Positions 40,981 to 60,280 of a DNA stretch of 64,000 nt are shown here, one piece after another. Location: the sequence record MN101225.1. One strand, 5' to 3'. How positions within the stretch are numbered: position 1 is the first letter of the stretch; every line of letters begins with the position of its first letter. Both the position numbers and the translations under genes were made by a program. The DNA is from Klebsiella phage KMI11. Under the pieces are notes generated by a model. It worked only from the letters and a program-made list of their open reading frames with translations. It was not told the origin of the DNA and searched no databases.

Positions 40981-41030
40981 AAAGTTGTTTACAACGGGTT
41001 GTAGTAGTGATACTATAACCCTATCAACTT
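40981..41030 (+). promoter_or_regulatory. early promoter with stem-loop over the -10 (PeSL-like): AAAGTTGTTTAC-N18-TACTAT
   Basis: GTTTAC at 40987-92, TACTAT at 41011-16; GGGTT...AACCC stem brackets the -10; one of five copies of the same cassette in the window. Confidence 0.6.
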
Positions 41031-41042
41031 GAGGAGAATAAA

Positions 41043-41222
41043 ATGAAACGTTGTGAATTAATTAGAAATGTTGCATCAACTATCTGCATGGGAGCGTTAG
41101 GTTTTGGCATTATAGGTGCAGCCTTTATGTCTCTTCCTGAAACAGTATCAGTGTTAAGTGTTGCATTTCTAATGGGTATCATTTCTTTCATAATGGATAA
41201 AATAGCACATGAAAAAGATTAA
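41043..41222 (+). CDS. small membrane protein (1 TM)
   Basis: 59 aa with hydrophobic core ICMGALGFGIIGAAFM; follows the early promoter. Confidence 0.45.
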   Translation: MKRCELIRNVASTICMGALGFGIIGAAFMSLPETVSVLSVAFLMGIISFIMDKIAHEKD

Positions 41223-41388
41223 GCAGTGGTTCATCAAAAACTATGATTTAAACCGTGAAGAAGTAACTAAGTATGATTATGTTACTTTGGGTGTAGGACT
41301 AGGTGCACTACTGGCAGCATTGCATTCATCACTACTTGCCATTGCAGTGCTTCTTATTTTGGCTCACTACAGCTGGAAACGTAAGTAA
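41209..41388 (+). CDS. small membrane protein (1 TM)
   Basis: 59 aa; TLGVGLGALLAALHSSLLAIAVLLILA hydrophobic helix; stop overlaps the next start (TAATG). Confidence 0.45.
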   Translation: MKKIKQWFIKNYDLNREEVTKYDYVTLGVGLGALLAALHSSLLAIAVLLILAHYSWKRK

Positions 41389-41573
41389 TGTACGCACTTT
41401 TAACTTGGTCTAATTATTATCCTGCTCCTGGCTCTGACCAAATCAGAGGTGTATACTCTACGGTAGAAGAATGCTATGAAGCACTCCAGGGAACGTATCA
41501 AGACTATTTTGAGATACTGAATTCTCGGTTTGAGACCGTTGCTAAAGGTTCAACTGAAGCATACAAAGATTAA
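41388..41573 (+). CDS. hypothetical protein
   Basis: 61-aa ORF, coupled. Confidence 0.4.
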   Translation: MYALLTWSNYYPAPGSDQIRGVYSTVEECYEALQGTYQDYFEILNSRFETVAKGSTEAYKD

Positions 41574-41589
41574 TTGTGAGGAAATTGTG

Positions 41590-41940
41590 ATGAATATCAG
41601 AGCTGCGTTTAATACTTTCTATCAAGAGAATTATAAGCTTCTTGCCCATGAATACCATGATGCACAAGGCGTTCCAATTCCTAATGATTTAGTTACGCCT
41701 AAGCATGTCAAAACCGATTCTCTTGACAATGAAATCCAGCCTGGTGATTTGGTATCATACTATTGCGGCGGGTCACTTTCTGCAGCAAGCGTTGGTATTT
41801 TGCTAGGATTTACTCCTAAAGGTTATCGTGTGGTTCCTTTCCATACAAGTCCAATTCCTGAGCACCGGGTATTGCTCTCTCATATGGATTCACCACATAG
41901 GGTATTCCTGGTTAAATCAAAGAGCTCACCGATTGTGTAA
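41590..41940 (+). CDS. hypothetical protein
   Basis: ATG at 41590 after GAGG; 116 aa. Confidence 0.45.
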   Translation: MNIRAAFNTFYQENYKLLAHEYHDAQGVPIPNDLVTPKHVKTDSLDNEIQPGDLVSYYCGGSLSAASVGILLGFTPKGYRVVPFHTSPIPEHRVLLSHMDSPHRVFLVKSKSSPIV

Positions 41941-42002
41941 TATGCTTTAGGTTTTCTTTGTTATTATTAATCTATCAACTGCTCTGATTAATTTCAGGGC
42001 AG

Positions 42003-42010
42003 TATAAATA
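42003..42010 (+). promoter_or_regulatory. late promoter TATAAATA immediately upstream of the first tRNA
   Basis: exact TATAAATA 13 nt before tRNA-Tyr. Confidence 0.6.
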
Positions 42011-42022
42011 AAATTACCCATT

Positions 42023-42109
42023 GGGGAGTTAGACCGTAGGGGTAGCGGGACAGACTGTAAATCTGTTGCTCAAAAGGCTCGAGTGGTTCGACTCCATTAC
42101 TCCCCACCA
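42023..42109 (+). tRNA. tRNA-Tyr(GUA), class II (long variable arm)
   Basis: acceptor GGGGAGU/ACUCCCC, anticodon stem ACAGA/UCUGU loop cuGUAaa, T-arm GGTTCGACT, A73, encoded CCA. Confidence 0.85.
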
Positions 42110-42115
42110 AATTTA

Positions 42116-42192
42116 GGGATACTAGCTCAGTTGGTTAGAGCACCGGACTTTTAATCCGGGTGTCCGAAGTTCGAGTCTTCGGTGTCCCACCA
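42116..42192 (+). tRNA. tRNA-Lys(UUU)
   Basis: acceptor GGGAUAC/GUGUCCC, anticodon stem CCGGA/UCCGG loop cuUUUaa, T-arm CGAAG-TTCGAGT-CTTCG, CCA. Confidence 0.85.
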
Positions 42193-42197
42193 AATTC

Positions 42198-42282
42198 GGG
42201 TCGTTGGCTGAGAGGGTAAGCGACGGACTGTTAATCCGTGTCAGAAATGACTAGGCAGGTTCGATACCTGCACGGCCCGCCA
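42198..42282 (+). tRNA. tRNA-Asn(GUU) with unusual 15-nt variable arm and 3-bp D stem
   Basis: anticodon arm ACGGA-cuGUUaa-UCCGU is identical to the E. coli tRNA-Asn anticodon arm; acceptor GGGUCGU/ACGGCCC, G73, CCA; extra GUCA-GAAA-UGAC hairpin in the variable region. Confidence 0.7.
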
Positions 42283-42536
42283 AATGAAGAAGTCAGAAGA
42301 CGTTCTGATAAAATCGTCGGCACAGAAATCCCTGGCATGGCGTTTGTATTAAGGAGTATGATTTCATCCTGCTTAATGCTTGTTCATGTTATAATTTCTT
42401 ACGGCGTTGAAAGTTCGCTTTCAGGGATACATCTTAGAGCAGAGTGTTAAACAAGATTCATCTGGTACCAAGGTGATGAGAGCCCTGTTCCCCTTTGCTT
42501 CGGCATCGTGCCAGAGTATCTCTGAAAGCGAATTAT

Positions 42537-42613
42537 GGACCTATAGTTTAGTTGGTTAAAATACTCCCCTGTCACGGGAGAGAGCACGGGTTCGATCCCC
42601 GTTAGGTCCGCCA
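42537..42613 (+). tRNA. tRNA-Asp(GUC)
   Basis: acceptor GGACCUA/UAGGUCC, anticodon stem CUCCC/GGGAG loop cuGUCac, G73, CCA. Confidence 0.85.
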
Positions 42614-42774
42614 AATAAGAACGTGGCAGTTCTTGAAGATGAGTTTGAGTCCTATAAGATAATGCCGAGGACGAAGCTGTTTGTTCCCACGGAATAAGCT
42701 CTATATTCGTAAGATTATATCTTTAGCGTGTTCTACATCAAGCTACTTGTTAGTACTTCAAGAACCCGGATAAA

Positions 42775-42851
42775 TGCGGAGTAACTTCAGTTGGTAGAAT
42801 GTTGGGCTCATATCCCGACACGCGCAGGTTCGAGTCCTGCCTCCGCCTCCA
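42775..42851 (+). tRNA. tRNA(CAU), initiator-like (fMet-type features)
   Basis: anticodon loop cuCAUau on a stem with three consecutive G:C pairs (GGG/CCC) next to the loop, as in initiator tRNA; 1:72 is a U.C mismatch; T-arm GCAGG-TTCGAGT-CCTGC; CCA. Confidence 0.65.
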
Positions 42852-42856
42852 ACAAT

Positions 42857-42931
42857 TGGACTATAGACAAGCGGTTAAGTCACCGGCCTTTGACTCCGGT
42901 ATCTCTGGTTCGAATCCAGATAGTCCAGCCA
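42857..42931 (+). tRNA. tRNA-Gln(UUG)
   Basis: U1-A72, CAAGCGGUAAG D-loop and CACCGG as in E. coli tRNA-Gln; anticodon loop cuUUGac; G73, CCA. Confidence 0.85.
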
Positions 42932-43026
42932 AATTAATATTCATTCAACGCGTCTACAGGGGTTGAACTGATCATTCTTCTCTTAATTTCGTATGAAGTC
43001 CTCATGATGGATGGAGTGAATATTGA

Positions 43027-43103
43027 TGTGGCCGTAGTTCAGTTGGTAGAACTCAGCATTGTGATTGCTGTCGTCGACGGTTCAAATCCGTCCGGTCACC
43101 CCA
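43027..43103 (+). tRNA. tRNA-His(GUG)
   Basis: anticodon stem CAGCA/UGCUG loop uuGUGau; acceptor GUGGCCG/CGGUCAC, C73, CCA; no encoded G-1. Confidence 0.8.
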
Positions 43104-43199
43104 ACAATGAAGGAATGGTGGAAAAATACACGGCCCGCAAAACGCTGTGGCTGTCGCTAAGCGAATTGTGTCTATATGACACTTCCTTCACCAAATACT

Positions 43200-43284
43200 G
43201 GAGAGTAGCGCTAGTGGTAGCAAACCGGACTTGAAATCCGGGCCATCGGAAACGGTGAGGGTTCAACTCCTTTACTCTCCGCCA
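43200..43284 (+). tRNA. tRNA-Ser(UGA), class II
   Basis: acceptor GGAGAGU/ACUCUCC, anticodon stem CCGGA/UCCGG loop cuUGAaa, long variable arm, G73, CCA. Confidence 0.85.
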
Positions 43285-43350
43285 AATTTATGAAAGTTAA
43301 ACGCTGCCCATAGCAGTGGTACATCAACAATTAGATGATTAGCTTTCCAT

Positions 43351-43426
43351 GGGAGTATAGCTCATTTGGTAGAGCTCTCGACCGATAATCGAGCGGTGAC
43401 TGGTTCGAGTCCAGTTACTCCCACCA
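43351..43426 (+). tRNA. tRNA-Ile(GAU)
   Basis: acceptor GGGAGUA/UACUCCC, anticodon stem CUCGA/UCGAG loop ccGAUaa (C33), A73, CCA. Confidence 0.8.
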
Positions 43427-43432
43427 AATAAC

Positions 43433-43507
43433 AGGTTCTTAGTATAACGGCTATTATGCTGGGCTCCAAACCCAGTGATGAGGGTTCGATTCCTTCAGGG
43501 CCTGCCA
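43433..43507 (+). tRNA. tRNA-Trp(CCA)
   Basis: acceptor AGGUUCU/AGGGCCU, anticodon stem CUGGG/CCCAG loop cuCCAaa, G73, CCA. Confidence 0.8.
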
Positions 43508-43512
43508 AATTT

Positions 43513-43587
43513 GCATCCATCGTATAACGGCTATTATAGGTGACTTCCACTCACTTGATAAGGGTTCGATTCCCTTTGGATGCTCCA
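43513..43587 (+). tRNA. tRNA-Gly(UCC)
   Basis: acceptor GCAUCCA/UGGAUGC, anticodon loop cuUCCac, T-arm AAGGG-TTCGATT-CCCTT, U73, CCA. Confidence 0.85.
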
Positions 43588-43592
43588 AATTA

Positions 43593-43669
43593 CTCCGTAT
43601 AGCTCAGTCTGGTAGAGCGTTCCATTTGGGATGGAAAGGTCGAATGTTCGAGTCATTCTATGGAGACCA
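43593..43669 (+). tRNA. tRNA-Pro(UGG)
   Basis: anticodon stem UUCCA/UGGAA loop uuUGGga; T-arm GAATG-TTCGAGT-CATTC; A73, CCA. Confidence 0.85.
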
Positions 43670-43675
43670 AATTAA

Positions 43676-43819
43676 CGGTATGACACAATACAAGATGGCG
43701 TAAGCTGAGTAGCGGGATTGCAGTCTCGTTCAGATATGCTATCGAGTATGGGTGATATATTAAACACATGGATTCTGCAAAGTCCATGTGACTCGGTTCG
43801 AGGCCGGGCATACCGTCCA
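43676..43819 (+). ncRNA. tRNA-like stable RNA candidate (about 144 nt; perfect acceptor stem, T-arm and CCA but oversized core)
   Basis: 5' CGGUAUG pairs 7/7 with 3' CAUACCG, followed by U73 and CCA; T-arm CUCGG-TTCGAGG-CCGGG; 7-bp hairpin ACATGGA/TCCATGT immediately 5' of the T stem; starts 6 nt after tRNA-Pro, matching the cluster spacing. Confidence 0.5.
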
Positions 43820-43844
43820 ATCACTTGCCATTGAGAAATATATT

Positions 43845-43997
43845 ATGAAATATTACGGCTTCAAAACATCCCATTTCGGGAAAGCATATCGTACAGAAAA
43901 CATTGATAGACGTCGAGCATATTACGAATCACTGCATAAAGCAGGACGTTCTCGTGCACGACAAGAAGGCCAAAAACAAGCGAAGGAAATAGAATGA
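43845..43997 (+). CDS. small basic protein
   Basis: ATG at 43845 (MKYYGFK...) chosen because the track ORF's earlier portion overlaps the tRNA-like element; basic C-terminus. Confidence 0.35.
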   Translation: MKYYGFKTSHFGKAYRTENIDRRRAYYESLHKAGRSRARQEGQKQAKEIE

Positions 43998-44359
43998 ATA
44001 TTTTTATTGGTGTTGCAAATAACGTAAATGCTATTACGGTGAAATTACAATGGAATCGTCCAACTAATTTTGCTTTAGGATTATGTAAATCTGAACGTGA
44101 TTTAATGCTTCATGCTGATTTTGCATACACTTTTGATGAACGCAAAGGTATGTGGGTCTGGATTAAATGCAGATACGAAGCATTAATCAAATATGAGTAC
44201 TTCAGTGAGCGTGATATTCAAGAAGTTATTGCTTATCATTCTGGCTGTAAAGTAAGTAAACTGCGTCAAGTTATTCCGTTTACTAATGCTTCAAATGTAG
44301 AAGAGCTAATTACTGATTTTAAACGAATTTATCAGGCGAAATATGATGAAAGATTCTAA
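43994..44359 (+). CDS. hypothetical protein
   Basis: 121-aa ORF, ATGA coupling. Confidence 0.45.
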   Translation: MNIFIGVANNVNAITVKLQWNRPTNFALGLCKSERDLMLHADFAYTFDERKGMWVWIKCRYEALIKYEYFSERDIQEVIAYHSGCKVSKLRQVIPFTNASNVEELITDFKRIYQAKYDERF

Positions 44360-44576
44360 AGGTCGAGACGTACAAGTTGGTGATATCGTTTTCTACGGAG
44401 AACGTACATATAATAAAGGTGGTCGTGGTTCTATGCGCTGCGGTCGTATTACAGATATTGCTTCAGGATTGGCTAAAGTAGATAACGACTACGTTGCAAT
44501 GCGAAGCAAATCATTCGTTAAGGTTTCTCCTATGTTCGCAACAATGTGGGAAAACGGAACGATTTTCGAGATTTAA
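44343..44576 (+). CDS. hypothetical protein
   Basis: 77-aa ORF. Confidence 0.4.
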   Translation: MMKDSKGRDVQVGDIVFYGERTYNKGGRGSMRCGRITDIASGLAKVDNDYVAMRSKSFVKVSPMFATMWENGTIFEI

Positions 44577-44630
44577 TGCTACAAGAATAACCTGTTATTA
44601 TTACTACATCAAAACAAACAAGGAAAAAGA

Positions 44631-44855
44631 ATGAAACGTATCGCACTGATTGTTGACCAAGAAGCTATGTTCGCTGCTACCGGTAAATTTCATCCGGTGA
44701 GTAAATTTGTTGCTCGCAGCGAGAAAATCGTTGGTCTGGTAGAAACTGTCGCAGGTGATGTAATTGTTTCTATTAAAACGTCTGAAATTTCTCCAGTAGT
44801 TAAAGTAGCAGTTGAAAATGACTTCTGGGAAGTAGCTGATTTTATGTGTGAGTAA
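44631..44855 (+). CDS. hypothetical protein
   Basis: 74-aa ORF with AAGGAAAAAGA RBS; followed by a terminator. Confidence 0.45.
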   Translation: MKRIALIVDQEAMFAATGKFHPVSKFVARSEKIVGLVETVAGDVIVSIKTSEISPVVKVAVENDFWEVADFMCE

Positions 44856-44888
44856 TTCTGCCTAGCAGGTGGATAAGCCCGACAAGGC

Positions 44889-44908
44889 GCCCTCTTCGGA
44901 GGGCTTTT
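44889..44908 (+). terminator. rho-independent terminator GCCCUC-UUCG-GAGGGC-UUUU
   Basis: 6-bp GC stem, UUCG loop, T4 run. Confidence 0.75.
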
Positions 44909-44933
44909 ATAAAAGTCATAAGATTTCTATAAA

Positions 44934-45010
44934 GGCCCTGTAGCTCAATTGGTAGAGCGTTCCCCTCATAAGGGATTGGTTGCATGTTCGAGTCTTTGCC
45001 AGGGTCACCA
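44934..45010 (+). tRNA. tRNA(CAU), elongator Met or Ile2(k2C)-type
   Basis: acceptor GGCCCUG/CAGGGUC fully paired (G1-C72), anticodon stem UUCCC/GGGAU loop cuCAUaa, TTCGAGTC T-loop (8-nt loop or imperfect stem), A73, CCA. Confidence 0.65.
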
Positions 45011-45029
45011 AATTAATGAGGAAAATATT

Positions 45030-45230
45030 ATGATGCGATTAGTTAAAGTAGTTGTAGAAGAATCTGAATACATGGGCGATAGCCGAATGATTGAAGAATT
45101 CGTTACTGTTGAGGCAGATTCTGAATCTGAAATCGCTGATAAAGTTTATCGTCATTTTGATAATATGTCTGATTCGTATGGCACAATGTATAACATTTAT
45201 CGTTTAGATGTAATAGTACATATCAACTGA
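45030..45230 (+). CDS. hypothetical acidic protein
   Basis: ATG at 45030 after GAGG; the track's upstream extension overlaps the tRNA. Confidence 0.45.
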   Translation: MMRLVKVVVEESEYMGDSRMIEEFVTVEADSESEIADKVYRHFDNMSDSYGTMYNIYRLDVIVHIN

Positions 45231-45240
45231 GGAAATTGAA

Positions 45241-45798
45241 ATGCATATTAAATTTGGACAAGTTATTCCTAAAGGCTTAGCAATGGCAATTACCACTTGG
45301 GAAAACGATGCTGATCGGTATTCTACCCAAATGGTTTATGGCTTAGAAAAAGAAGAGATTAATCAAGTAATTCACGTTCTTGAATGGTTCTCTTCTAATG
45401 GTCGGCGTGGTGAATACCTTGGAAATAATGATTACAACCATGAAGCAATTCTTGAAAAGCTTCATACTGAACAGAAGTATGTAACTCCTGAATTTTCCAA
45501 GAAATTCTTTGGCGTTGATGTTCCTGCATATGATTGTTCAGACGAAGAGTTTGATGCTTATTTAGATAACCACTATTCTTGTTCAAATGAAGTTATGTAT
45601 GCTATTCAGGCTTGGTTGGGTAATCCAATTGAATATGATTATGATTTCATGCGAGTATTTGAGAAAGTTGAAATCTTTGATATTAAAGAAGAAATTCGTA
45701 TTCCTGATGCTCCGGTTGCATTCCATATTGGAATTACGTATAAGCAGAAAGAAAGCCCATTAAAAGTTGATTGGTTGAAATACGTGAAGGAAAAGTAA
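45241..45798 (+). CDS. hypothetical protein
   Basis: 185-aa ORF. Confidence 0.5.
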   Translation: MHIKFGQVIPKGLAMAITTWENDADRYSTQMVYGLEKEEINQVIHVLEWFSSNGRRGEYLGNNDYNHEAILEKLHTEQKYVTPEFSKKFFGVDVPAYDCSDEEFDAYLDNHYSCSNEVMYAIQAWLGNPIEYDYDFMRVFEKVEIFDIKEEIRIPDAPVAFHIGITYKQKESPLKVDWLKYVKEK

Positions 45799-46248: not shown

Positions 46249-46259
46249 TATAATTATCT

Positions 46260-46387
46260 TGTTCAGTGTTGAAATCGGTAGACATGGTGACGGACACCTT
46301 TTGAGCTCGCATATTGCATCATATGCTGGCGACGGTGGTAAATCGCTGACGGAATCAGTCGTGCAGGTTCGAGTCCTGCCTGAACAA
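46260..46387 (+). ncRNA. tRNA-like stable RNA candidate (about 128 nt) fused 3 nt upstream of tRNA-Arg
   Basis: 5' UGUUCAG pairs 7/7 with 3' CUGAACA; canonical T-arm GCAGG-TTCGAGT-CCTGC; D-loop-like AAUCGGUAGAC; about 55 nt of extra core including a GCATAT-TGCATC-ATATGC hairpin; no clean anticodon arm found. Confidence 0.5.
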
Positions 46388-46390
46388 TCT

Positions 46391-46467
46391 CGGGGCATAG
46401 CTCAGTTGGATAGAGCAGCGGACTTCTAATCCGCAGGTCGAAGGTTCGAATCCTTCTGCCTCGACCA
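46391..46467 (+). tRNA. tRNA-Arg(UCU)
   Basis: acceptor CGGGGCA/UGCCUCG, anticodon stem GCGGA/UCCGC loop cuUCUaa, T-arm GAAGG-TTCGAAT-CCTTC, A73, CCA. Confidence 0.85.
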
Positions 46468-46732: not shown

Positions 46733-46934
46733 AATTCGAAGGGAAACTTGCGTATGCCCTCGTTGAGTCGTCAGATAGAAGAGAATGGTTCGTCCATTGC
46801 CGCTAGTCGGTTGTTCCCTGTCGCAAGCATAACCTCCTGACGCTATACTCCTTTGGATGAGACTGATGCCTCCGAGTTCAAAGGAATGAATTTAGCAGGT
46901 CATCTGCCAGTAGGTGATGCTGTCGATTCTCAGA

Positions 46935-46959
46935 GCCCTGTCTTCGGACGGGGCTTTTT
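46935..46959 (+). terminator. rho-independent terminator GCCCUGUC-UUCG-GACGGGGC-UUUUU closing the tRNA transcription unit
   Basis: 8-bp stem, UUCG loop, T5 run. Confidence 0.8.
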
Positions 46960-47100: not shown

Positions 47101-47150
47101 AAAGTTGTTTACATCAGTAGTCAACTAGGTTACTATAGCTACATCGAAAC
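47101..47150 (+). promoter_or_regulatory. early promoter cassette AAAGTTGTTTAC-N18-TACTAT (second copy)
   Basis: 13-nt block CAAAGTTGTTTAC is identical to the copy at 40981; -10 TACTAT at 47131. Confidence 0.6.
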
Positions 47151-47173
47151 AAAACAGAGTAACGGAGAATAAA

Positions 47174-47464
47174 ATGTCTAAATTCAACTTTATCCAAATT
47201 GAACGTGGTTATAATCAATATGGTACTCCTGATCGTTATCGTGCAGTTTGGATTAAAGGTGAACACGAGAATGCAGTATTCAACGTAGCAGAAACCCGTG
47301 AACTGAAAGATTTGATTAAGCATGTTCGCAAAGATTGGCCTGCTGTTGAAGAGTACTACGTTCGAGTTTACCATGAAGAAGCTGCTACGGTTCAAATGGC
47401 TATCAAGTTTGCTAAAACCGTTCCTGCTTTGGTTAAACGAATTGAAGCGGTAATTAACTGCTAA
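47174..47464 (+). CDS. hypothetical protein
   Basis: 96-aa ORF, GGAGAATAAAATG RBS. Confidence 0.5.
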   Translation: MSKFNFIQIERGYNQYGTPDRYRAVWIKGEHENAVFNVAETRELKDLIKHVRKDWPAVEEYYVRVYHEEAATVQMAIKFAKTVPALVKRIEAVINC

Positions 47465-51705: not shown

Positions 51706-52185
51706 ATGAAAACTTATCAAGAATTTTTAAATGAATCCCGTTTAGCAACAGTTGGCGTAATGACTGAGTCTGTTGGAAGTAATCTTCTGAAATTTAAAAA
51801 AGGTCAGAAGATGACCGCCACGTTAGAAGATGGTACAGAAATTGAAATGGACGTTGTTGGATATAACTACGTAGTAGACGGCAAGTTATATAATAAGAGC
51901 CATGCCAAGTTTGATTCATTTGATGATTTCACCTCTTCTATTGAAGATGAGTCTTCTCGCAAAGCAGTAGCATCTGGCGATGCACGCTCCTTAATGGCAC
52001 TTGGTCATGAGCGTATTAAGTCTAAGCAGAACAAACCTGGCGAAGATAACTTTGCATTAGTAGGTTATCAGTCTGGCAAAACTTCTAACGGTTACCAACG
52101 TACTGTCACTATGTACATGCGTAATGGTAAAATTGCATTCGTAAACGATCGCGGCGCTATTCGTTACGCTAAATCAATTAAGTAG
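51706..52185 (+). CDS. internal protein with capsid-targeting sequence (novel IP)
   Basis: N-terminus MKTYQEFLNE matches the T4 IP CTS consensus MKTYQEFIAE with an L-x-E gp21 cleavage site; 159 aa, Lys-rich; starts on the e stop codon. Confidence 0.75.
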   Translation: MKTYQEFLNESRLATVGVMTESVGSNLLKFKKGQKMTATLEDGTEIEMDVVGYNYVVDGKLYNKSHAKFDSFDDFTSSIEDESSRKAVASGDARSLMALGHERIKSKQNKPGEDNFALVGYQSGKTSNGYQRTVTMYMRNGKIAFVNDRGAIRYAKSIK

Positions 52186-52240
52186 TTTACATTGAGACGG
52201 TAATGTGGTATAGTAGCCTTATTAAATGAAGGCTACTATG
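52185..52240 (+). promoter_or_regulatory. early promoter cassette GTTTAC-N18-TATAGT with GTAGCC...GGCTAC stem-loop over the -10
   Basis: GTTTAC 52185-90, TATAGT 52209-14; 6-bp stem flanking TTATTAAATGAA loop. Confidence 0.55.
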
Positions 52241-52266
52241 ACACGCATTAACTTAAAGGATATAAA

Positions 52267-52839
52267 ATGAAAACCTATAAAGAATTTATCACCGAAGCTT
52301 CTGTAGGAAAGGTCCAAGGCATTAATAAAGATGAGTGGACCTACCGAGGAAACGGTTTTGACCCTAAAACAGCTCCTATTGAGCGGTATTTAGCTACAAA
52401 GGCTTCCGACTTTAAAGCCTTCGCCTGGGAAGGACTTCGCTGGCGTAACGATCTAAATATTGAAGCCGATGGGCTTAAATTTGGTCATATTCAAGATGTT
52501 GTTGCTAGTAACTTAGACGCAGCTTTTGTTAAAGCCGATGCAGACCTTCGCCGTTGGAATTTAAAACTATTCTCTAAACAGAAAGGCCCGGTATTTGTAC
52601 CTAAAGCAGGTAAATGGGTTATTGATAATAAATTGGCTAAGGCTGTCAACTTTGCAGGCCTCGAATTCGCCAAGCATAAGGCAGCCTGGAAAAATCTTGA
52701 CGCCATGGCTTTCCGTAAAGAATTCGCCGAGGTTATGGCTAAAGGCGGATTTAAGGCAGATTTAGATACCACTAAAGGTACGTTTAAAGACGCTAATGTT
52801 CAATACGCTTACGCCGTTGCTAATGCAGCCCGTAATTAA
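52267..52839 (+). CDS. ipIII: internal protein III-like (CTS-bearing)
   Basis: 190 aa; MKTYKEFITEA CTS; LRWRNDLN, RRWNLKLFSKQKGP.FVPKAGKWVIDNKLAKAVNFAGLEFAKHK and C-terminal YAYAVANAAR match what I recall of T4 IPIII. Confidence 0.75.
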   Translation: MKTYKEFITEASVGKVQGINKDEWTYRGNGFDPKTAPIERYLATKASDFKAFAWEGLRWRNDLNIEADGLKFGHIQDVVASNLDAAFVKADADLRRWNLKLFSKQKGPVFVPKAGKWVIDNKLAKAVNFAGLEFAKHKAAWKNLDAMAFRKEFAEVMAKGGFKADLDTTKGTFKDANVQYAYAVANAARN

Positions 52840-52980: not shown

Positions 52981-52996
52981 GCCAAGGAATGGCCCC
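52981..52996 (+). repeat. 16-nt direct repeat GCCAAGGAATGGCCCC, copy 1 (upstream of the third IP gene)
   Basis: exact 16-mer repeated at 53383-53398; the two copies bracket the IP gene 53032-53337. Confidence 0.8.
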
Positions 52997-53031
52997 ATTT
53001 AATTTAAAACTTTACCATTCTAGGATATAAA

Positions 53032-53337
53032 ATGAAAACTTATAAAGAATTTATCACCGAAGCAAAAGCACCAAAAGTATTCCAGATCTGTACCCAAGGA
53101 AATTTGGATAAAGAATTCGTCGATGCTATTGTGTCAAATCTTCGTAAGGAAGGCGTGCAAGTAGATTCAGTTGAATGGACCAAAGGCAGTGATAATTTTA
53201 TTATTACTGTATCTAAAGGTTCTTTGGCTAAAATTAAAAAGTCTTGGGGTGTAATGCGTGCTTATGATTTAAGCCATGACGGCGATCAAGCCAAAGTACG
53301 AATGAATACCCTTAAGGGAGGCCGGGAATACGTTTAG
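53032..53337 (+). CDS. internal protein with CTS (novel small IP)
   Basis: 101 aa; MKTYKEFITEA, the same first 11 residues (about 33 nt near-identical DNA) as the IP at 52267. Confidence 0.75.
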   Translation: MKTYKEFITEAKAPKVFQICTQGNLDKEFVDAIVSNLRKEGVQVDSVEWTKGSDNFIITVSKGSLAKIKKSWGVMRAYDLSHDGDQAKVRMNTLKGGREYV

Positions 53338-53382: not shown

Positions 53383-53398
53383 GCCAAGGAATGGCCCC
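53383..53398 (+). repeat. 16-nt direct repeat GCCAAGGAATGGCCCC, copy 2
   Basis: exact match to 52981-52996. Confidence 0.8.
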
Positions 53399-54257: not shown

Positions 54258-54730
54258 AGTGTCCTCCACATTTAGTTGAAAGCTTCTGCGATTGGTTCAG
54301 TAATTCTGGCGAGCAAGATTTCTATGAAGCCCATCAGAATGGAACTTGGAATGAAACCACAAAACAGTGGGAAGAAGCTACAACGTATATAGGCACTCGC
54401 GGATATGGAGTTGACGAGCCTATTGAAATTGTAGAGTACGATAAAGAAACTGATGAAGAAATACTTTATGCTAATGATACCAGAGAACGTTTATGGCGAG
54501 AATCTGAATTAGAAGCAGAAGTTATTCGTCTTAAAGAAGAATTAAAAGGACCAACGGGTTTTGCTACGTGGAAAGACGCTGCTATTTCTGAACGTTTAGC
54601 ACGGGTAAAATTGATGCCAGAGGGTAAAATCTCGTACTTACAAGCTGCATCCAAGTTCCATTCTACTGAGTGGAATACTATGGACGTAATTACCGCATAC
54701 ATGCATGGTTGGAATAAAGAATCTAATTAA
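54239..54730 (+). CDS. hypothetical protein
   Basis: 163-aa ORF. Confidence 0.45.
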
Positions 54731-55101: not shown

Positions 55102-55376
55102 TGTCAATTGAAGATATTAAAGGATATAAGCCACATACCGATGAAAAGATTGGTAAAGTGAATGCTATCAAAGACGCAGAAGTCCGTCTTGGTCTTATCT
55201 TTACTGCTCTTGAAGAAGAGGCATTAATTAATTACCAAGTGTCAGTCAATGAACCTAAGCAGGTACTCGATGAAGCATACGAACGTATTGCCCAGATTCG
55301 TACAGCAAAACAGAAACTGAAGGAAGCTTCTATGTGGGCTTGCCGTGCAGTGTTCTGTCCAGAAGAAAAATATTAA
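55101..55376 (+). CDS. hypothetical protein
   Basis: 91 aa, ATAATG coupling. Confidence 0.45.
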   Translation: MSIEDIKGYKPHTDEKIGKVNAIKDAEVRLGLIFTALEEEALINYQVSVNEPKQVLDEAYERIAQIRTAKQKLKEASMWACRAVFCPEEKY

Positions 55377-55380
55377 AAAG

Positions 55381-55425
55381 TAGTTTACTTTCCTTACGGG
55401 CCATGATACTATGGCCCTACAAATA
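55381..55425 (+). promoter_or_regulatory. early promoter cassette AGTTTAC-N17-TACTAT with GGGCCAT...ATGGCCC stem-loop
   Basis: GTTTAC 55384-89; TACTAT 55407-12 sits in the loop of a 7-bp perfect inverted repeat GGGCCAT/ATGGCCC. Confidence 0.6.
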
Positions 55426-55439
55426 AAGGAGAATGAACT

Positions 55440-55898
55440 ATGTCAACTAACCCAGAAGTATTCATTCGCAGAACTAAACTGCGTCGTAAGTTTGAGGAAG
55501 CTTTTCGCTCTTTGAATTTATCAGTTCGTGCCCGAGCTAAGGCTGAGGGCAAAGAGCCTTTCTTCACTAAGTACTCTGATCATTTGTTGGACCGTGCTAT
55601 CCAACGTGAAATTGATGAAGAGTATGTATTCTCTGTTCTTTCCAAAATTCCTAATCATCTTAAAGAAATTAATGAATTTTTAGCAATGCCTTGGCTTCCA
55701 ATTGACCCAAAAGACATTGATGAAAATATCGAGTATAAGCCAATGCGGTTAGAAATTACGGATGGAAATCTGTGGCTAGGATTTACCATGGATATTCCAA
55801 GACCAGGAAAAGGACCTAGTATAAAGTGTCGTATGGCATTCGTTAATGATAAACGTTTGAAAGGTAAAATCAGCACAAAAGTTATACACATTAATTGA
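55440..55898 (+). CDS. hypothetical protein
   Basis: 152-aa ORF after the promoter cassette, GGAGAATGAAC RBS. Confidence 0.5.
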   Translation: MSTNPEVFIRRTKLRRKFEEAFRSLNLSVRARAKAEGKEPFFTKYSDHLLDRAIQREIDEEYVFSVLSKIPNHLKEINEFLAMPWLPIDPKDIDENIEYKPMRLEITDGNLWLGFTMDIPRPGKGPSIKCRMAFVNDKRLKGKISTKVIHIN

Positions 55899-55905
55899 GG
55901 TAAAC

Positions 55906-56451
55906 ATGAAAAAAGCGCTTATCGGTCTAATGGCCTTGTGTTCAACGGCCTTTGGGTCTGAGCCAACTTTCAGTAATGTTCAACTTGACAACTTACATTA
56001 CGCATATAATTTTGGTGAACAATATCAAAAATCCGGAAAGGAAAAATCTCCGCATAACCGATACGATAATAACGGCTTAGGATATATAATGGCTGCTATA
56101 TCATGGAAAGAATCTTCGGCAGGAGCCAATTTAAAAGCAGGAAAGGGGCATCATTCTTATGGGGTTTTTCAAAATTACTTACCCACCGTTAAGGCCAGAG
56201 CTAAACTGGAAGGTAAAAACCTTAGTGATTCTGAAATAAGAAAAATGCTTAAATCCAGACGTAATTCTGCGGAGTGGGCATATATTGAGCTTTCATATTG
56301 GTTAAATATACATAACGGCAATATGCGAAAAGCTCTTGCTAGTTATAACGCAGGATGGAATGTCAAAAGAGGAAACTCTTATGCGTCAGATGTCCTAGAG
56401 AAAGCTCATTTCTTAAAGAAACATAAAATGCTACATATAAAGGTGGAATAA
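55906..56451 (+). CDS. secreted lytic transglycosylase (SLT-domain)-like protein
   Basis: 181 aa; signal peptide MKKALIGLMALCSTAFG; SLT motifs in order: E-S (AISWKESSAG), GVFQ (GLMQ-like), SYNAGWN (AYNAG-like). Confidence 0.5.
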   Translation: MKKALIGLMALCSTAFGSEPTFSNVQLDNLHYAYNFGEQYQKSGKEKSPHNRYDNNGLGYIMAAISWKESSAGANLKAGKGHHSYGVFQNYLPTVKARAKLEGKNLSDSEIRKMLKSRRNSAEWAYIELSYWLNIHNGNMRKALASYNAGWNVKRGNSYASDVLEKAHFLKKHKMLHIKVE

Positions 56452-56771
56452 TGATAAAGTACGCCGCGCTTCTTGGATTAGTATTGGCATTCTCTGTTAA
56501 TGCTGAAAATTCAATGTCGGATTCACTTCGTATTGCTAAAACATTTTGTAATACGAATTCTGAATGTGTTGATATATTAGCGCTTGAATTAGATTCGGCA
56601 TTCAGCGATGGAGTAAAAGATTCACGTAGCCCGGCTCAGTGGACAACACTAATAAATCGTAAGGCTAAGAGCATGAAAGATTTATGTGTCAATGCTCCTA
56701 ACGAAAATATATGTTTAATGTATCGTGACCAATTAATGGCTCGTTATATGTCAGGACTATCGTCAAAATGA
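56451..56771 (+). CDS. secreted/periplasmic small protein
   Basis: 106 aa; signal peptide MIKYAALLGLVLAFSVNA; 4 Cys; ATGA coupled. Confidence 0.45.
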   Translation: MIKYAALLGLVLAFSVNAENSMSDSLRIAKTFCNTNSECVDILALELDSAFSDGVKDSRSPAQWTTLINRKAKSMKDLCVNAPNENICLMYRDQLMARYMSGLSSK

Positions 56772-57160
56772 AAAAAGCAGCTATTTTATTATGCTGTGCA
56801 TTTTCAGTTAATGCCTGGGAAAAGCTCCCAGGCTATCCTGAACCTGTACTAGCGGCGCAGGGGACTAAAATAGAAAGCAACGGTCCATTCAAGAACAATA
56901 TTGAAATAGCATTTGTGCCTAGTAGTAGAAAACTGCTAATGTCATTTTATAATTATCAAGATAAAGATGACCAGGTGATAGTTCCACATGTTGAGTATAA
57001 TGCTCGCGGATGTGGAATGCAGAGTGACGGTGTTTCTGTTGATGGAGTAATGCATCCTAAAGAACAAGGAGTGCTGAACCCTATCCTTAATTGTAACAAT
57101 GCTATATTTTTAAGAGTATACAATAATCTTAATGAATATGCAACATATAAAATTCCATAG
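56768..57160 (+). CDS. secreted/periplasmic small protein
   Basis: 130 aa; signal peptide MKKAAILLCCAFSVNA; ATGA coupled. Confidence 0.45.
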   Translation: MKKAAILLCCAFSVNAWEKLPGYPEPVLAAQGTKIESNGPFKNNIEIAFVPSSRKLLMSFYNYQDKDDQVIVPHVEYNARGCGMQSDGVSVDGVMHPKEQGVLNPILNCNNAIFLRVYNNLNEYATYKIP

Positions 57161-57168
57161 GTGAATAA

Positions 57169-57636
57169 ATGATTACTGGATATATTAAGGGTAATATTGT
57201 AGAATTATTCATGAAGCATGAATGCGATATCGCTCATGGGTGTAATTGCTTTACTACAATGGGTGCTGGTGTAGCAGGACAACTTGCTAAAGCATATCCT
57301 CCAATTCTCGATATTGACATCGATGAAGACCGTTATTATGACAACAATTTAGCTAAGCTTGGAACTCATACTCGAGCCATTCACAAAAAAGGCACTGCAT
57401 ATTGCTATAATTTGTATACTCAGTATGCTCCAGGTCCAAATGTTGATTACGGCGCAATTTTTAATGCATTCCATGAACTAAATTCTGGTCGTATTGTTTA
57501 TAATCGTCCTCTATACATTCCAAAAATTGGAGCTGGTATTGCTGGCGGTGATTGGGAACTAATTGAGAAATTAATCAATTTAGCAACACCTGATATTGAC
57601 ATTATGGTGGTAGAATATGAAGAAGCTAAAAGCTAA
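57169..57636 (+). CDS. macro domain (ADP-ribose binding/processing) protein
   Basis: 155 aa; HGCNCFTTMGAGVAGQL and KIGAGIAGGDW resemble macro-domain Gly-rich ADP-ribose-binding loops. Confidence 0.5.
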   Translation: MITGYIKGNIVELFMKHECDIAHGCNCFTTMGAGVAGQLAKAYPPILDIDIDEDRYYDNNLAKLGTHTRAIHKKGTAYCYNLYTQYAPGPNVDYGAIFNAFHELNSGRIVYNRPLYIPKIGAGIAGGDWELIEKLINLATPDIDIMVVEYEEAKS

Positions 57637-57660
57637 ATCCGTCTTGTTAGAGGTAAATAG

Positions 57661-57828
57661 ATGATTACTGAAGAGCAAAAAACTAAACTGTGGCAGTTGA
57701 TTGACGATTATGCAGGTGCCGAGCAAGTAGTAGCTATTAGTGCCATTTACGGAAATGGTCTACCTGAAGAATACGATGAACTCATTCGTTCTAAGAATGC
57801 TATTTCTGATTTTATGGAGACACTTTAA
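57661..57828 (+). CDS. small acidic protein
   Basis: 55 aa, AGAGGTAAATAG RBS, stop overlaps the tk start (TAATG). Confidence 0.4.
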   Translation: MITEEQKTKLWQLIDDYAGAEQVVAISAIYGNGLPEEYDELIRSKNAISDFMETL

Positions 57829-58427
57829 TGGCACAGCTTTATTTCAACTACGCGAGCATGAATGCAGGCAAATCGGCTAATCTTCTTACCGCGGCGCATA
57901 ATTACAAAGAACGAGGAATGGGAACTCTCATTCTTAAACCTGCTATTGATACTCGTGATTCTGCCACCGAGGTAACATCACGTATTGGTCTTCGTCATGA
58001 AGCTAATACAGTAGACGAATCTATTGATATCCTTGAGTTTTTCAAGTGGGCACAAACACAACGTGATATTCATTGTGTGTTCGTTGATGAAGCCCAATTT
58101 TTAACTACTGAGCATGTTGTTCAGCTGTGTAAGATTGTTGACCTGTATGATGTTCCGGTAATGGCATATGGTCTTCGCACTGATTTTCGCGGAGAGTTAT
58201 TCGAAGGTTCTAAAGCACTGTTGGCTGTTGCTGATAAACTGGTCGAGCTTAAGGGGGTTTGCCATTGCGGCCGTAAAGCTACTATGGTTGCTCGTATTGA
58301 TGAAAACGGAAATGCTATTACCGATGGTGAAGTAGTAGAACTTGGTGGTGAAGATAAGTATGTTTCTCTTTGCCGTAAGCATTGGTTTGAACTAATTGGT
58401 GTTTATAATGAAGCCAAGAACGTATAA
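57828..58427 (+). CDS. tk: thymidine kinase
   Basis: 199 aa; Walker A MNAGKS, VFVDEAQF, zinc ribbon CHCGRKAT...LCRKHW; matches recalled T4 Tk. Confidence 0.93.
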   Translation: MAQLYFNYASMNAGKSANLLTAAHNYKERGMGTLILKPAIDTRDSATEVTSRIGLRHEANTVDESIDILEFFKWAQTQRDIHCVFVDEAQFLTTEHVVQLCKIVDLYDVPVMAYGLRTDFRGELFEGSKALLAVADKLVELKGVCHCGRKATMVARIDENGNAITDGEVVELGGEDKYVSLCRKHWFELIGVYNEAKNV

Positions 58428-58602
58428 CACTATCCTGATGCTAATCGTAGGTATGCTATTCATTTGGATTGCTGCAGCAGCGTCTGTACAAAGCGACAGA
58501 CGAGAAGAAGCACAAAATCGTCTTGATTCTAGCTGTAAAGTATTAGCACAAGGTAAAGACTTTATTGCTAATATGAATGGGTGTTATATTAAACATGAGT
58601 AG
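58408..58602 (+). CDS. small membrane protein
   Basis: 64 aa; ILMLIVGMLFIWIAAAA TM helix; overlaps the tk 3' end. Confidence 0.35.
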   Translation: MKPRTYNTILMLIVGMLFIWIAAAASVQSDRREEAQNRLDSSCKVLAQGKDFIANMNGCYIKHE

Positions 58603-58688
58603 CTTATTTGCCATAGCAAGTGGTATAGTACTAGTACTCATAATTGGATTCTTGCTGTACGTAATATTGCTTTCGTTGATGGTTTAAT

Positions 58689-58823
58689 ATGAAAAAATAT
58701 GTGATGTGCTACCGTTGTCTTCATGTATATGATTACAACACTGCTCCAAAGACAGCTACCAAGCGTCTTAAGAATAAAGAACCTGAATGCCCCAAATGTA
58801 AATGTAAGGTAATCTATTCATGA
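58689..58823 (+). CDS. small zinc-ribbon protein
   Basis: 44 aa; CYRC...CPKCKC (CxxC-x26-CxxC). Confidence 0.35.
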   Translation: MKKYVMCYRCLHVYDYNTAPKTATKRLKNKEPECPKCKCKVIYS

Positions 58824-58886
58824 ATATTAAATTTTTTAAATCAGGATTTTACTATCGTTGAGGTACTTTAACTTAGCGAGGTAATA

Positions 58887-59270
58887 ATGTCTAGAACAAT
58901 TCGCCGTAAAGGCTGGCATGTAGTAAAATCTTCCAAATGGAACGATCAGAATAATAACGAATTTGCTTATATTAAAAGCTATAACGAATACGTTAAAACT
59001 CAGAAAGATAAAGAAACCCAACAGAAATATGTTGAACTGCGTATTTCTGAAAATCGGGAAAGACCGCTAGAGGCCAAGAAACTGATTGCTAAATCAAAGC
59101 GCGATGGATTCTGGAAAACTCTACGTTGGACCCGTTATGCTATGCCGATCCCACGTCTATTTCATAAAGCCGAAATTAAACGCGCATTGAAGTATGACGA
59201 AGAATATAACTGGGACGAAGCTGGTGCTAGAACTATTGAGCAAGGCATCTGCGAATGGCTTTGGGATTAA
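58887..59270 (+). CDS. hypothetical basic protein
   Basis: 127-aa ORF, GCGAGGTAATAATG RBS. Confidence 0.5.
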   Translation: MSRTIRRKGWHVVKSSKWNDQNNNEFAYIKSYNEYVKTQKDKETQQKYVELRISENRERPLEAKKLIAKSKRDGFWKTLRWTRYAMPIPRLFHKAEIKRALKYDEEYNWDEAGARTIEQGICEWLWD

Positions 59271-59284
59271 GTAACACATACTTA

Positions 59285-59292
59285 TATAAATA
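59285..59292 (+). promoter_or_regulatory. late promoter TATAAATA
   Basis: exact TATAAATA 19 nt upstream of ORF 59311. Confidence 0.5.
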
Positions 59293-59310
59293 CTATTACT
59301 AACTGATGAG

Positions 59311-59529
59311 GTGTATATGCAGCATTTAAGTGAAAAGCAACTTCGTAATCTTACTGTAGAACAACTGGACGAACTTCGTCGTGAGATTGGGCATGGTATT
59401 TCGCACCTTCAGGAAGAAATTCGTCAGCACAGTTCAAAAGCAGATTATACCCGTAAACGTAAGCTGGAAAAATACCTCAAAGAAGTTAAGGCTGTACTTC
59501 AGCACAAACGTAATACTGGACAAAAATAA
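59311..59529 (+). CDS. hypothetical protein
   Basis: 72-aa helical basic ORF. Confidence 0.45.
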
Positions 59530-59540
59530 TAGGAGGCCGT

Positions 59541-59828
59541 ATGGCCTTTAAACCAATTTGCTTAGCCCTAGTGTTGGGCTGCGGGATTTCATTCCCAGCT
59601 GCATCACACGACGACATTTCGGATTATAACTCGTATGTTGAGGGAGCTCTACAAGTTTATGCTAAATTTAAGGAGCCTAGTAAGCAAGAGTCTGAACAGT
59701 TCTATTCTTTCATACAAAGTAAATGGAAGAGTGAGTCTTGTTCTAAAGATTGTGATTCTTTAGGACGTTCAGCAGGTGAAGAATATGCTAACCGCATGAG
59801 GATACAACTCGATAATGAAGTTCAATGA
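59541..59828 (+). CDS. secreted small protein
   Basis: 95 aa; signal peptide MAFKPICLALVLGCGISFPAAS; AGGAGG RBS. Confidence 0.5.
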   Translation: MAFKPICLALVLGCGISFPAASHDDISDYNSYVEGALQVYAKFKEPSKQESEQFYSFIQSKWKSESCSKDCDSLGRSAGEEYANRMRIQLDNEVQ

Positions 59829-60201
59829 TTTTGTAAAGGACGGTAAACTTACTCCACAAGATGAATTCATCGGTTTACTTATGGCGTCTCAGGCGTATTT
59901 TCATTCAGCGCATTTTGATACCAAATCGTATGCCAGACATAAAGCGTATGAAGTTTTCTTTAACGAGATTCCAGATTTGATAGATGCTTTTGGTGAGCAG
60001 TGGTTAGGATTCTCAGGTAAGAGTTATACACCGGCTTTACCATCACAGAAAGAGCTGCCAAAGGACACCATTGAAATGCTAGACCTCATTCTGGCTAAGG
60101 CCGATGGTATCTACAAGTCAGTTCCTGCCGCCCTCCAAAGTGTTCTGGATGACATTACAGGTCTATGCTACAAGACTAAGTATTTGTTATCATTGCAGTA
60201 A
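59815..60201 (+). CDS. hypothetical protein
   Basis: 128-aa ORF. Confidence 0.45.
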   Translation: MKFNDFVKDGKLTPQDEFIGLLMASQAYFHSAHFDTKSYARHKAYEVFFNEIPDLIDAFGEQWLGFSGKSYTPALPSQKELPKDTIEMLDLILAKADGIYKSVPAALQSVLDDITGLCYKTKYLLSLQ

Positions 60202-60209
60202 TACCCTCC

Positions 60210-60235
60210 GCCTCCTTCGGGAGGCATTTTCTTTT
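60210..60235 (+). terminator. rho-independent terminator GCCUCC-UUCG-GGAGGC-AUUUUCUUUU
   Basis: 6-bp stem, UUCG loop, T-rich tail; directly followed by an early-promoter cassette. Confidence 0.7.
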
Positions 60236-60240
60236 CAAAA

Positions 60241-60280
60241 AGTTGTTTACTTCCCTTCATTACATGATACTATAGACATA
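60241..60280 (+). promoter_or_regulatory. early promoter cassette AAAGTTGTTTAC-N17-TACTAT (third exact AAAGTTGTTTAC copy)
   Basis: GTTTAC 60245-50, TACTAT 60268-73. Confidence 0.6.

Follow-up and report, generated by a model that had tools for sequence, protein, structure and literature searches.

Genomic setting of the cassettes

The window analysed here is a stretch of 64,000 nucleotides from Klebsiella phage KMI11 (sequence record MN101225.1), and its right-hand part carries five short cassettes, numbered 1 to 5 from left to right, which resemble the early promoters of bacteriophage T4 and some of which contain a stem-loop. Judged by its sequence, the phage is a JD18-like Klebsiella phage of the genus Jiaodavirus in the Tevenvirinae, the subfamily of T4; positions 40000–61000 of the window, used as query, align to Klebsiella phage JD18 and relatives with 97.7% identity and 99% coverage. 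From 1 to 38 kb the opposite strand of the window encodes the late structural module with genes 53 to 24. The block from 38 to 64 kb is read rightward and, following the annotation of JD18, starts with genes 4-2-3-1-57A-57B and continues with the tRNA cluster, nudE, e, the internal-protein genes, regB, vs, tk and rI, up to nrdC.11. In T4 the corresponding block, between gene 57 and nrdC, is well known for its variability. All five cassettes lie inside the variable region from 57B to nrdC.11, and JD18 has such promoters also 5' of conserved early genes elsewhere.

Cassette 1 heads a homologue of T4 trna.4 (43% identical), small open reading frames (ORFs) and a cluster of 16 tRNA genes, and cassette 2 precedes a block of ORFans. 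The -35 of cassette 3 overlaps the stop codon of the upstream gene and the gene downstream is a homologue of ipIII, 87.5% identical to that of T4, while the gene after cassette 4 is regB (57% to T4). The initial annotation held that every copy is followed by ORFs without T4 core counterparts. This is wrong for three of the five, namely those before trna.4, ipIII and regB, whose genes are accessory rather than core. T4 carries the promoter motif at syntenic places: before trna.4 (T4 position 73572), before e.8 after the tRNA/stable-RNA region (70696), before ipIII and denV (66498 and 65413), before regB (62797) and after rI.-1 (58780), this last promoter being preceded by a terminator-like hairpin as at window positions 60210–60235.

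Identification of five predicted early promoters

The block AAAGTTGTTTAC was found without mismatch at 40981, 47101 and 60239, with one mismatch at 55377 and with two at 52179. The three letter-identical copies reported initially are thus real; of the start positions reported with them, 40981 and 47101 are exact and the other three (52185, 55381 and 60241) deviate by 2–6 nt from where the block begins. The composite motif GTTTAC-N17/18-TAYWAT has four matches in the window, or five if the TATAGT of the cassette at 52185 is allowed, all of them on the + strand and intergenic, against an expectation of 0.13 per dinucleotide shuffle and a maximum of 2 in 300 shuffles. No site was found in the 38-kb late structural module.

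A two-block matrix trained on 20 JD18 sites from outside the region equivalent to the window scored the five window sites at 26.8–52.7 bits, the next independent site at -2.9 bits and shuffled windows at 2.8 bits or less. The gap between the five sites and the next best indicates that the five are real and that the window contains exactly five, the number counted in the initial annotation. Less specific searches were of little use. The loose 12-mer alone was not enriched in the window (15 matches versus 11.1 expected), and a generic sigma-70 scan was uninformative (44 sites versus 55.8 expected), enrichment being seen for the T4-specific motif only. A possible sixth promoter, TTTTAC-N18-TACAAT at 60801, scored -5.3 with the matrix and showed no structure; it was not counted, though it is conserved in relatives.

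For a genome-wide count of the motif the JD18 genome was rebuilt from five fetched stretches. The pattern GTTTAC-N16-18-TAnn[AG]T has 25 matches there, 25/25 on the early-gene strand and none on the other, each followed by a Shine-Dalgarno (SD) sequence and an ATG. The five window sites are therefore the local share of a genome-wide set and not a private repeat family, and the special five-copy family proposed at the outset gives way to about 25 early promoters across the JD18 genome.

All five cassettes are intergenic, have an A/T-rich upstream tract and are followed by an SD sequence and an ATG 26–52 nt downstream (Table 1). Every cassette has an A at position +7 counted from the -10, and four have TGn ahead of the -10, cassette 2 being the one that lacks it. 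The GTTTAC -35, a TAnnnT -10 and the 16–17 nt between TTTACN and the -10, which are the hallmarks of T4-type early promoters, are found in 5/5, and the identity among the cassette copies, about 60%, is restricted to promoter elements. T4 early promoters form the 'UP/-35/TGn/-10' class, used immediately after infection by the unmodified host polymerase, and their consensus has an A-rich tract at -40 to -44, then GTTTAC at -36 to -31, and is rich in GT ahead of the -10 (Hinton 2010, PMC2988021; Nolan et al. 2006, PMC1524935). The window cassettes resemble them in GTTTAC, the upstream A-rich tract, the GT-rich or TGn element and the TAnnnT -10, in being placed ahead of early genes, of novel ORFs and of the tRNA cluster, and in matching at five syntenic positions. 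They differ in that the -10 in the JD18-like phage is almost uniformly TACTAT. Because of both sequence and synteny, the five sites are identified as predicted early promoters. Experimental mapping of T4 sites was reportedly carried out by Liebig and Rueger in 1989 and by Broida and Abelson in 1985, and was not used as evidence here.

Table 1. Positions of the predicted promoters, hairpins and terminators in the window.
Feature	Position	Strand	Details
Cassette 1, predicted early promoter	40981..41042	+	AAAGTT block; -35 GTTTAC 40987-40992; TGn; -10 TACTAT 41011-41016; matrix score 51.7 bits
Cassette 1, start region		+	predicted +1 A 41023; SD GAGGAG 41031-41036; ATG 41043
Cassette 1, hairpin	40996..41021	+	11-bp stem with one G.U, GUGA loop; the -10 is the 3' arm
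Cassette 1, stretch duplicated elsewhere	40981..41027	+	47 nt; single copy in the window; crossover interval 40981-40995
Terminator-like hairpin and T run	46932..46959	+	about 150 nt upstream of cassette 2, end of tRNA unit; from sequence and fold, unscored against shuffles
Cassette 2, predicted early promoter	47101..47173	+	-35 47107-47112; -10 47131-47136; predicted +1 47143; ATG 47174; 45.2 bits
Cassette 3, predicted early promoter	52179..52266	+	-35 52185-52190; -10 TATAGT 52209-52214; predicted +1 52221; ATG 52267; 26.8 bits
Cassette 3, hairpin and denV relic	52213..52252	+	8-bp GTAGCCTT/AAGGCTAC 52213-52236, then relic denV start ATGACACGCATTAAC 52238-52252
Cassette 4, predicted regB early promoter	55377..55439	+	-35 55383-55388; -10 55407-55412; predicted +1 55419; ATG 55440; 47.5 bits
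Cassette 4, hairpin	55398..55417	+	8-bp GGGCCAUG/UAUGGCCC; repeat GGGCCAT/ATGGCCC with loop GATACT
Cassette 4, outer helix	55388-55395 with 55426-55433	+	CUUUCCUU pairs with AAGGAGAA (regB SD)
Intrinsic terminator	60210..60235	+	after rI.-1 homologue; GCCTCC-TTCG-GGAGGC and T run; -12.3 kcal/mol, z -2.6
Cassette 5, predicted early promoter	60239..60305	+	-35 60245-60250; 17-nt gap after GTTTAC; -10 60268-60273; 52.7 bits
Cassette 5, start region		+	predicted +1 60280; ATG 60306

Stem-loops in the promoter class

A significant hairpin was observed in three of the five cassettes, numbers 1, 3 and 4, with z scores of -3.1, -5.4 and -5.8, respectively. The hairpin of cassette 1 has a stability of -16 kcal/mol and only 0.1% of random 38-nt windows fold equally well, while cassette 4 folds with -21.5 kcal/mol and its internal hairpin is equalled by 0.5% of random 38-nt windows. 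The hairpin of cassette 3 takes in the last 2 nt of the -10 at its start and otherwise lies downstream. Cassettes 2 (z +0.2) and 5 (z +0.1) have no significant hairpin of their own, cassette 5 being directly preceded by the intrinsic terminator at 60210–60235, as the initial annotation recognised. The same annotation had the -10 of four copies within the loop of a perfect 5–7-bp inverted repeat. This did not survive inspection, the -10 of cassette 1 being an arm of its stem, the hairpin of cassette 3 lying beyond the -10 and cassettes 2 and 5 offering only the chance-level matches described below. In its example from cassette 4 the repeat is genuine; the loop had to be corrected as one AT was counted twice.

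Hairpins are characteristic of the promoter class. Ten of the 25 JD18 promoters (40%) fold at -10 kcal/mol or better compared with 4.1% of 2000 random windows (Mann-Whitney p = 1.8e-4). A set of 57 non-redundant sites was assembled from the window, JD18, pKp20, T4 and 16 metagenomic T4-like loci, and permuted by exchanging the spacers and the downstream parts between promoters. In this set the longest stem across the -10 has a mean length of 5.47 bp against 4.37 +/- 0.13 bp after permutation, and stems of at least 7 bp spanning the -10 occur 13 times against 2.1 expected.

The regB promoter provides evidence of a further kind. The promoter motif is present 5' of regB in 16/16 related loci and in T4, and its hairpin is kept in five lineages with differing sequences: GGGCCAT/ATGGCCC, GGGCTAT/ATAGCCC, GTGTAGGAGTA/TACTTCTACAC, CTCCTGTAG/CTACAGGAG and, in T4, CCTCTTGACTG/CAGTTAAGAGG. 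When seven distinct sequences are aligned without gaps, pairing of the 7-bp stem is 100% and includes two compensatory CG-to-UA pairs as well as one UA-to-UG pair, a result equalled by 2/500 shuffles. This covariation is evidence that the stem-loops in the cassettes are under selection. In one T4-like lineage (L014–L019, position ~9932) the cassette before regB, GTTTACATCTCCTGTAG...CTACAGGAG, is nearly identical to the one before denV in T4 (T4 65413), so that one module of promoter, hairpin and SD sequence serves different genes in different phages.

Comparison with known promoter stem-loops

The promoter-early stem-loops (PeSLs) of T4/PST have the consensus TTTACW-N17-TAYWAT, and the class is defined by a stem-loop in or beside the promoter, in any of five allowed positions that range from the AT-rich region to just before +1 (Arbiol et al. 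2010, PMC2839356; Comeau et al. 2014, PMC4122927). Published tests showed both promoter and terminator activity for phi1 PeSLs, and the stem-loops were proposed to attenuate upstream transcription, which was demonstrated for one phi1 element (Arbiol et al. 2010, PMC2839356). Termination or attenuation by the stem-loop and the formation of mini-circles have been demonstrated for phi1/RB49 only (PMC2839356; PMC4122927).

The window cassettes share with the PeSLs of RB49/phi1, T4/PST and KVP40/nt-1 the AT-rich tract, the early promoter, the SD sequence and the ATG and, in three of the five, a stem-loop overlapping or adjoining the -10. Further points of resemblance are an indel that separates close relatives and has a cassette at either end, and the existence of chimeric cassettes; the five also sit in a hyperplastic region, JD18 having such promoters before conserved early genes as well. 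The layout is likewise that of a PeSL, with about 100 nt of conserved motifs running from an upstream stop codon at the 5' end to the SD sequence and start codon at the 3' end. They differ from PeSLs in that just three of the five have a stem-loop and that the association with indels is not significant in the sample examined. In addition, the stems do not have the Gn-loop-Cn form seen in RB49/phi1, and they do not lie upstream of the promoter, where the PST stem is depicted. Cassettes 1, 3 and 4 have the required stem-loop, cassette 5 has one only by way of its upstream terminator and cassette 2 has none; hence the published definition, which is rather permissive, fits three or four of the five, and one PeSL-type indel is documented. 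The initial assignment of all five to PeSL modules holds for the motif, which is the T4/PST consensus, and for cassette 1, which flanks a variable gene; two of the cassettes have no stem-loop of their own. The cassettes are already known biology, that of T4 early promoters and the PeSL class, in a genus for which the literature searched has no earlier description.

Recombination at the cassettes

In phages pKp20 and Hyena_ER38 a 74-codon ipI-like gene with the leader MKTYQEFITEA lies between two copies of cassette 1, and window positions 40981–41027 align to both copies. The gene is annotated as an internal virion protein in the Hyena_ER38 record. In the single cassette 1 of the window the left flank is that of copy A while the spacer comes from copy B, and the exchange therefore took place within the shared AAAGTTGTTTACAAC. 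T4 has the same two-promoter layout around ipI. In the collection of phage records the locus is polymorphic, the ipI-like module being present in 38 records and the 296-nt unit absent from about 100 Klebsiella-phage records (~140 records altogether). Cassette 1 has thus been shown to be a recombination substrate, with an indel bounded by two cassettes. A segment comprising cassette 1 and the first ~30 nt of the trna.4 homologue (40981–41074; L002 2783–2876) was also found in >450 records of T4-like phages of Escherichia, Shigella and Yersinia at 90–94% identity, the flanking genes falling below the megablast threshold in those records.

Cassette 3 borders two further indels. In pKp20 an intact denV gene directly follows the cassette and has its GGAGG SD sequence inside the 3' arm of the hairpin. 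In the window and JD18 denV is deleted; only ATGACACGCATTAAC, encoding the first five codons (MTRIN), remains and is followed by the ribosome-binding site that serves the next gene, with an ATYAACYTAA microhomology at the deletion junction. The SD sequence inside the hairpin has changed from the GGAGG of pKp20 to GAAGG in the window. A KPV15-like contig lacks 52185–52845, that is cassette 3 and the ipIII homologue, and its left break is exactly at the G of GTTTAC. Mosaic cassettes were also found in JD18. The first, a sixth cassette at JD18 position 38870 just past the end of the window, has 29 nt in common with the regB cassette (its 5' half) and 48 nt in common with cassette 2 (its 3' half); window positions 47131–47178 are 96% identical to the 3' half of this JD18 cassette. 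The halves of the second, at 133851, are common to the cassettes at 25897 and 6163.

The polymorphism of internal-protein (IP) loci in T-even phages has been described (Repoila et al. 1994, as cited in PMC4122927). As in the T-even IP loci, genes with an IP leader (MKTY.EFI.EA) are gained and lost between conserved flanks at three loci of JD18-like phages: at cassette 1 (the ipI-like gene), at cassette 3 (the ipIII homologue) and at 53032–53337 (a third IP gene). Internal-protein genes are often anti-defence factors. Not all of these events are exchanges between promoter cassettes, one of the three using the non-promoter 16-bp repeat GCCAAGGAATGGCCCC. The third IP gene is flanked by direct copies of this repeat at 52981–52996 and 53383–53398, which is not a promoter motif, and Hyena_ER38 has a single copy of GCCAAGGAATGGCCCC and no gene at this locus. 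Another repeat, of 42 nt (52257–52298 and 53022–53063), covers the SD sequence and the N-terminal capsid-targeting leader (MKTYKEFITEA) of two IP genes.

Interpretation and alternatives

The above results suggest, with a probability that we put at roughly 0.78, that the cassettes are five sigma-70-dependent T4-type early promoters whose hairpins would act as insulators and whose shared DNA would provide patches of homology. Immediately after infection the five promoters would be used by host RNA polymerase for transcription of early and accessory genes that are read rightward, the units served being trna.4 with the tRNA cluster, the ORFan block, ipIII, regB-vs and the block after rI.-1. Each promoter would be composed of a UP-like A/T tract, the GTTTAC -35, TGn, the TACTAT -10 and a start at the A 7 nt downstream; for the phage in the window we infer this use, the +1 positions and the timing from sequence. 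The cassette 1 and cassette 4 hairpins stop 2 nt short of the predicted +1, and the 5' arm of the cassette 3 hairpin lies wholly upstream of it. The promoter's own transcript would therefore lack the hairpin, and only RNA reading through from upstream could fold it. The hairpins may thereby insulate transcription units from one another by attenuating or ending read-through RNA, and in cassettes 3 and 4 the hairpin may also mask the ribosome-binding site belonging to the next gene in such RNA. Since 45–75 nt of each cassette are common to other cassettes, the cassettes also act as homology patches, as cassette 1 and the mosaic cassettes show.

Several observations weigh against this account. 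In cassettes 2 and 5 only matches of 4–5 bp exist, which is the chance level (z ~0; permutation mean 4.4–4.6 bp). The pairing of spacer with SD sequence across 48 promoters, 3.96 bp versus 3.89 bp after permutation, shows no excess. General masking of the SD sequence by the promoter spacer is not borne out by these permutations and was retained as a local reading for cassettes 3 and 4 only. Folds of the sense and the antisense strand do not differ in overall stability (28 versus 28), so that action as RNA rather than DNA is not established. A GC-rich hairpin followed by a U run, as expected of an intrinsic terminator, is present at 60210–60235 and 46932–46959; the promoter-internal hairpins have no U run and intrinsic termination by them is therefore doubtful. 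When the window was aligned with six close relatives, indel events were observed at 2/6 cassette junctions and at 7/43 others (Fisher p = 0.30), with none at cassettes 2, 4 and 5. Most indels lie away from the cassettes. These others coincide with the 16-bp non-promoter repeat (52981/53383), a 21-bp microhomology (62025–62045) and homing endonucleases (42850 and 57840), and one more is a change of length within an ORF at 54460–54625; the microhomologies at the other indels in the 26 kb are of 10–21 bp. Synteny with T4 and three other lineages is broken at most junctions, whether a cassette is present or absent, and deep comparisons therefore cannot test the cassette hypothesis. The literature search found nothing on Jiaodavirus promoters or transcript 5' ends, nor genome-wide 5'-end maps for T4. 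Of the modular gene shuffling proposed in the initial annotation, cassette 1 shows the expected signature; the enrichment of indels at cassettes as a whole is not significant. That the cassettes are a preferred route of gene shuffling is likely but unproven.

A simpler explanation would be that the sites are early promoters and nothing else, their hairpins being by-products of the constraints on a strong promoter and the cassette 1 indel a case of generic short-homology recombination. Such an explanation is in keeping with the two unstructured cassettes, with the non-promoter repeat, microhomologies and homing endonucleases used by other indels in the same 26 kb, and with the lack of significant enrichment. 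We nevertheless consider it improbable as the excess of stems persists in permutations that retain the shared promoter sequence, the regB stem has compensatory changes, different stems occur at the regB promoter in five lineages, and mosaic cassettes exist. Rather less probable still is that the inverted repeats act as DNA, in the form of a cruciform or single-strand hairpin, either stimulating recombination, for example as a target of endonuclease VII, or aiding the melting of the -10. The repeats do span the -10, a region melted in open complexes, and the sense and antisense stabilities are similar, but the G.U pairs (in cassette 1, in the closing pair of cassette 4 and in the UA-to-UG change) would be A/C mismatches on the other strand and the crossover in cassette 1 is in the -35 block, outside the hairpin.

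Two other explanations are very improbable. JD18 encodes MotA- and AsiA-like proteins, and other parts of the region do contain a MotA-box-like site as well as TATAAATA motifs (41941, 42003 and 59285), so the five sites might be thought to be MotA/AsiA-dependent middle promoters or gp55 late promoters. The MotA box has the consensus (a/t)(a/t)(a/t)TGCTTtA, centred at -30 and 11–13 nt before the -10, yet none of the five cassettes has TGCTTnA at about -30 (TGCTT is absent from all five spacers) or the late TATAAATA box, and all have the early-type GTTTAC -35. Multiple dispersed copies with shared blocks of 12–48 nt might equally recall a small autonomous transposing element similar to a miniature inverted-repeat transposable element. 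Against such an origin, the copies have no common terminal inverted repeats or target-site duplications, are found in a single orientation at gene starts, are only ~60% identical and in promoter elements only, and occupy positions conserved with T4.

Returning to the account in which early promoters carry insulating hairpins, it is possible, though we hold this tentatively and think it rather doubtful, that hairpins spanning the -10 are a selected RNA-level insulator in ~40% of T4-type early promoters and act only in upstream transcripts. Ending 1–2 nt before the start, such a hairpin would end or stabilise the upstream message, for example as a 3' cap after cutting by RegB or RNase E at the next GGAG. 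At regB and denV the next ribosome-binding site would be hidden, making each early block dependent on its own promoter. The T4 gates at e, soc, 49 and I-TevI have a promoter within the 5' arm, so that the ribosome-binding site is free in the short transcript only (Uzan & Miller 2010, PMC3014915). Cassettes 3 and 4, and denV and regB of T4, are similar in that the predicted start lies downstream of the 5' arm, and the SD sequence is covered either by the 3' arm or by an outer helix. The T4 gates have late promoters and silence early read-through, whereas the internal promoter here is early and the masking effect is not general. If the insulator proposal were true, the late-promoter hairpin gate of T4 e, soc, 49 and I-TevI would extend to early promoters throughout the subfamily.

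The current understanding of T4-type phages is unchanged by these results, and the part that might be worth further work is the selected hairpin spanning the -10. They do provide a usable early-promoter map for a genus of which many members are isolated for Klebsiella therapy and in whose records promoters are not annotated. They also provide an independent case, at the level of sequence, of a regulatory cassette as the recombination point for gain and loss of an internal-protein gene.

Other variable sites and the tRNA cluster

At 62025–62045 a 548-nt gene (JD18 gp086) is present in JD18 and three other relatives and absent from the window, pKp20 and Hyena, the junction being a 21-nt imperfect repeat at translationally coupled gene ends. 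In pKp20 homing-endonuclease genes are inserted between tRNA-Met and tRNA-Gln and before tk, the insertion points corresponding to window positions 42850 and 57840. The first of these genes has its own GTTTAC promoter with the -10 in a perfect 16-nt palindrome, GTGATATAATTATCAC. After tRNA-Met the window has 213 nt (45014–45228) in place of which JD18, OU509536 and Hyena have an unrelated 179 nt (JD18 gp127); the 213-nt segment is absent from pKp20.

Within the 16-tRNA cluster the spacers at 42283–42536, 42614–42774, 43670–43844, 46249–46390 and 46733–46930 have no tRNA or Rfam call, the only Rfam family found in 41.9–47.2 kb being tRNA. The 254-nt spacer between tRNA-Asn and tRNA-Asp folds with -84.3 kcal/mol (z -5.5; 0/200 shuffles), and the spacer at 46249–46390 ends in a T-arm-like GGTTCGAGTCC. 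T4 rnaC and rnaD were compared with the tRNA region of the window as possible counterparts and showed no similarity; the spacers may be stable small RNAs or tRNA relics, at the position of rnaC/rnaD in T4. Directly before the first tRNA, at 41941–42010, there is a MotA-box-like TATGCTTTA with a TATTAT -10, together with a late box TATAAATA, and a second late box is found at 59285–59292 before the rI.1 homologue. With early, MotA-like and late motifs before the tRNAs, the cluster may be served by early, middle and late promoters.

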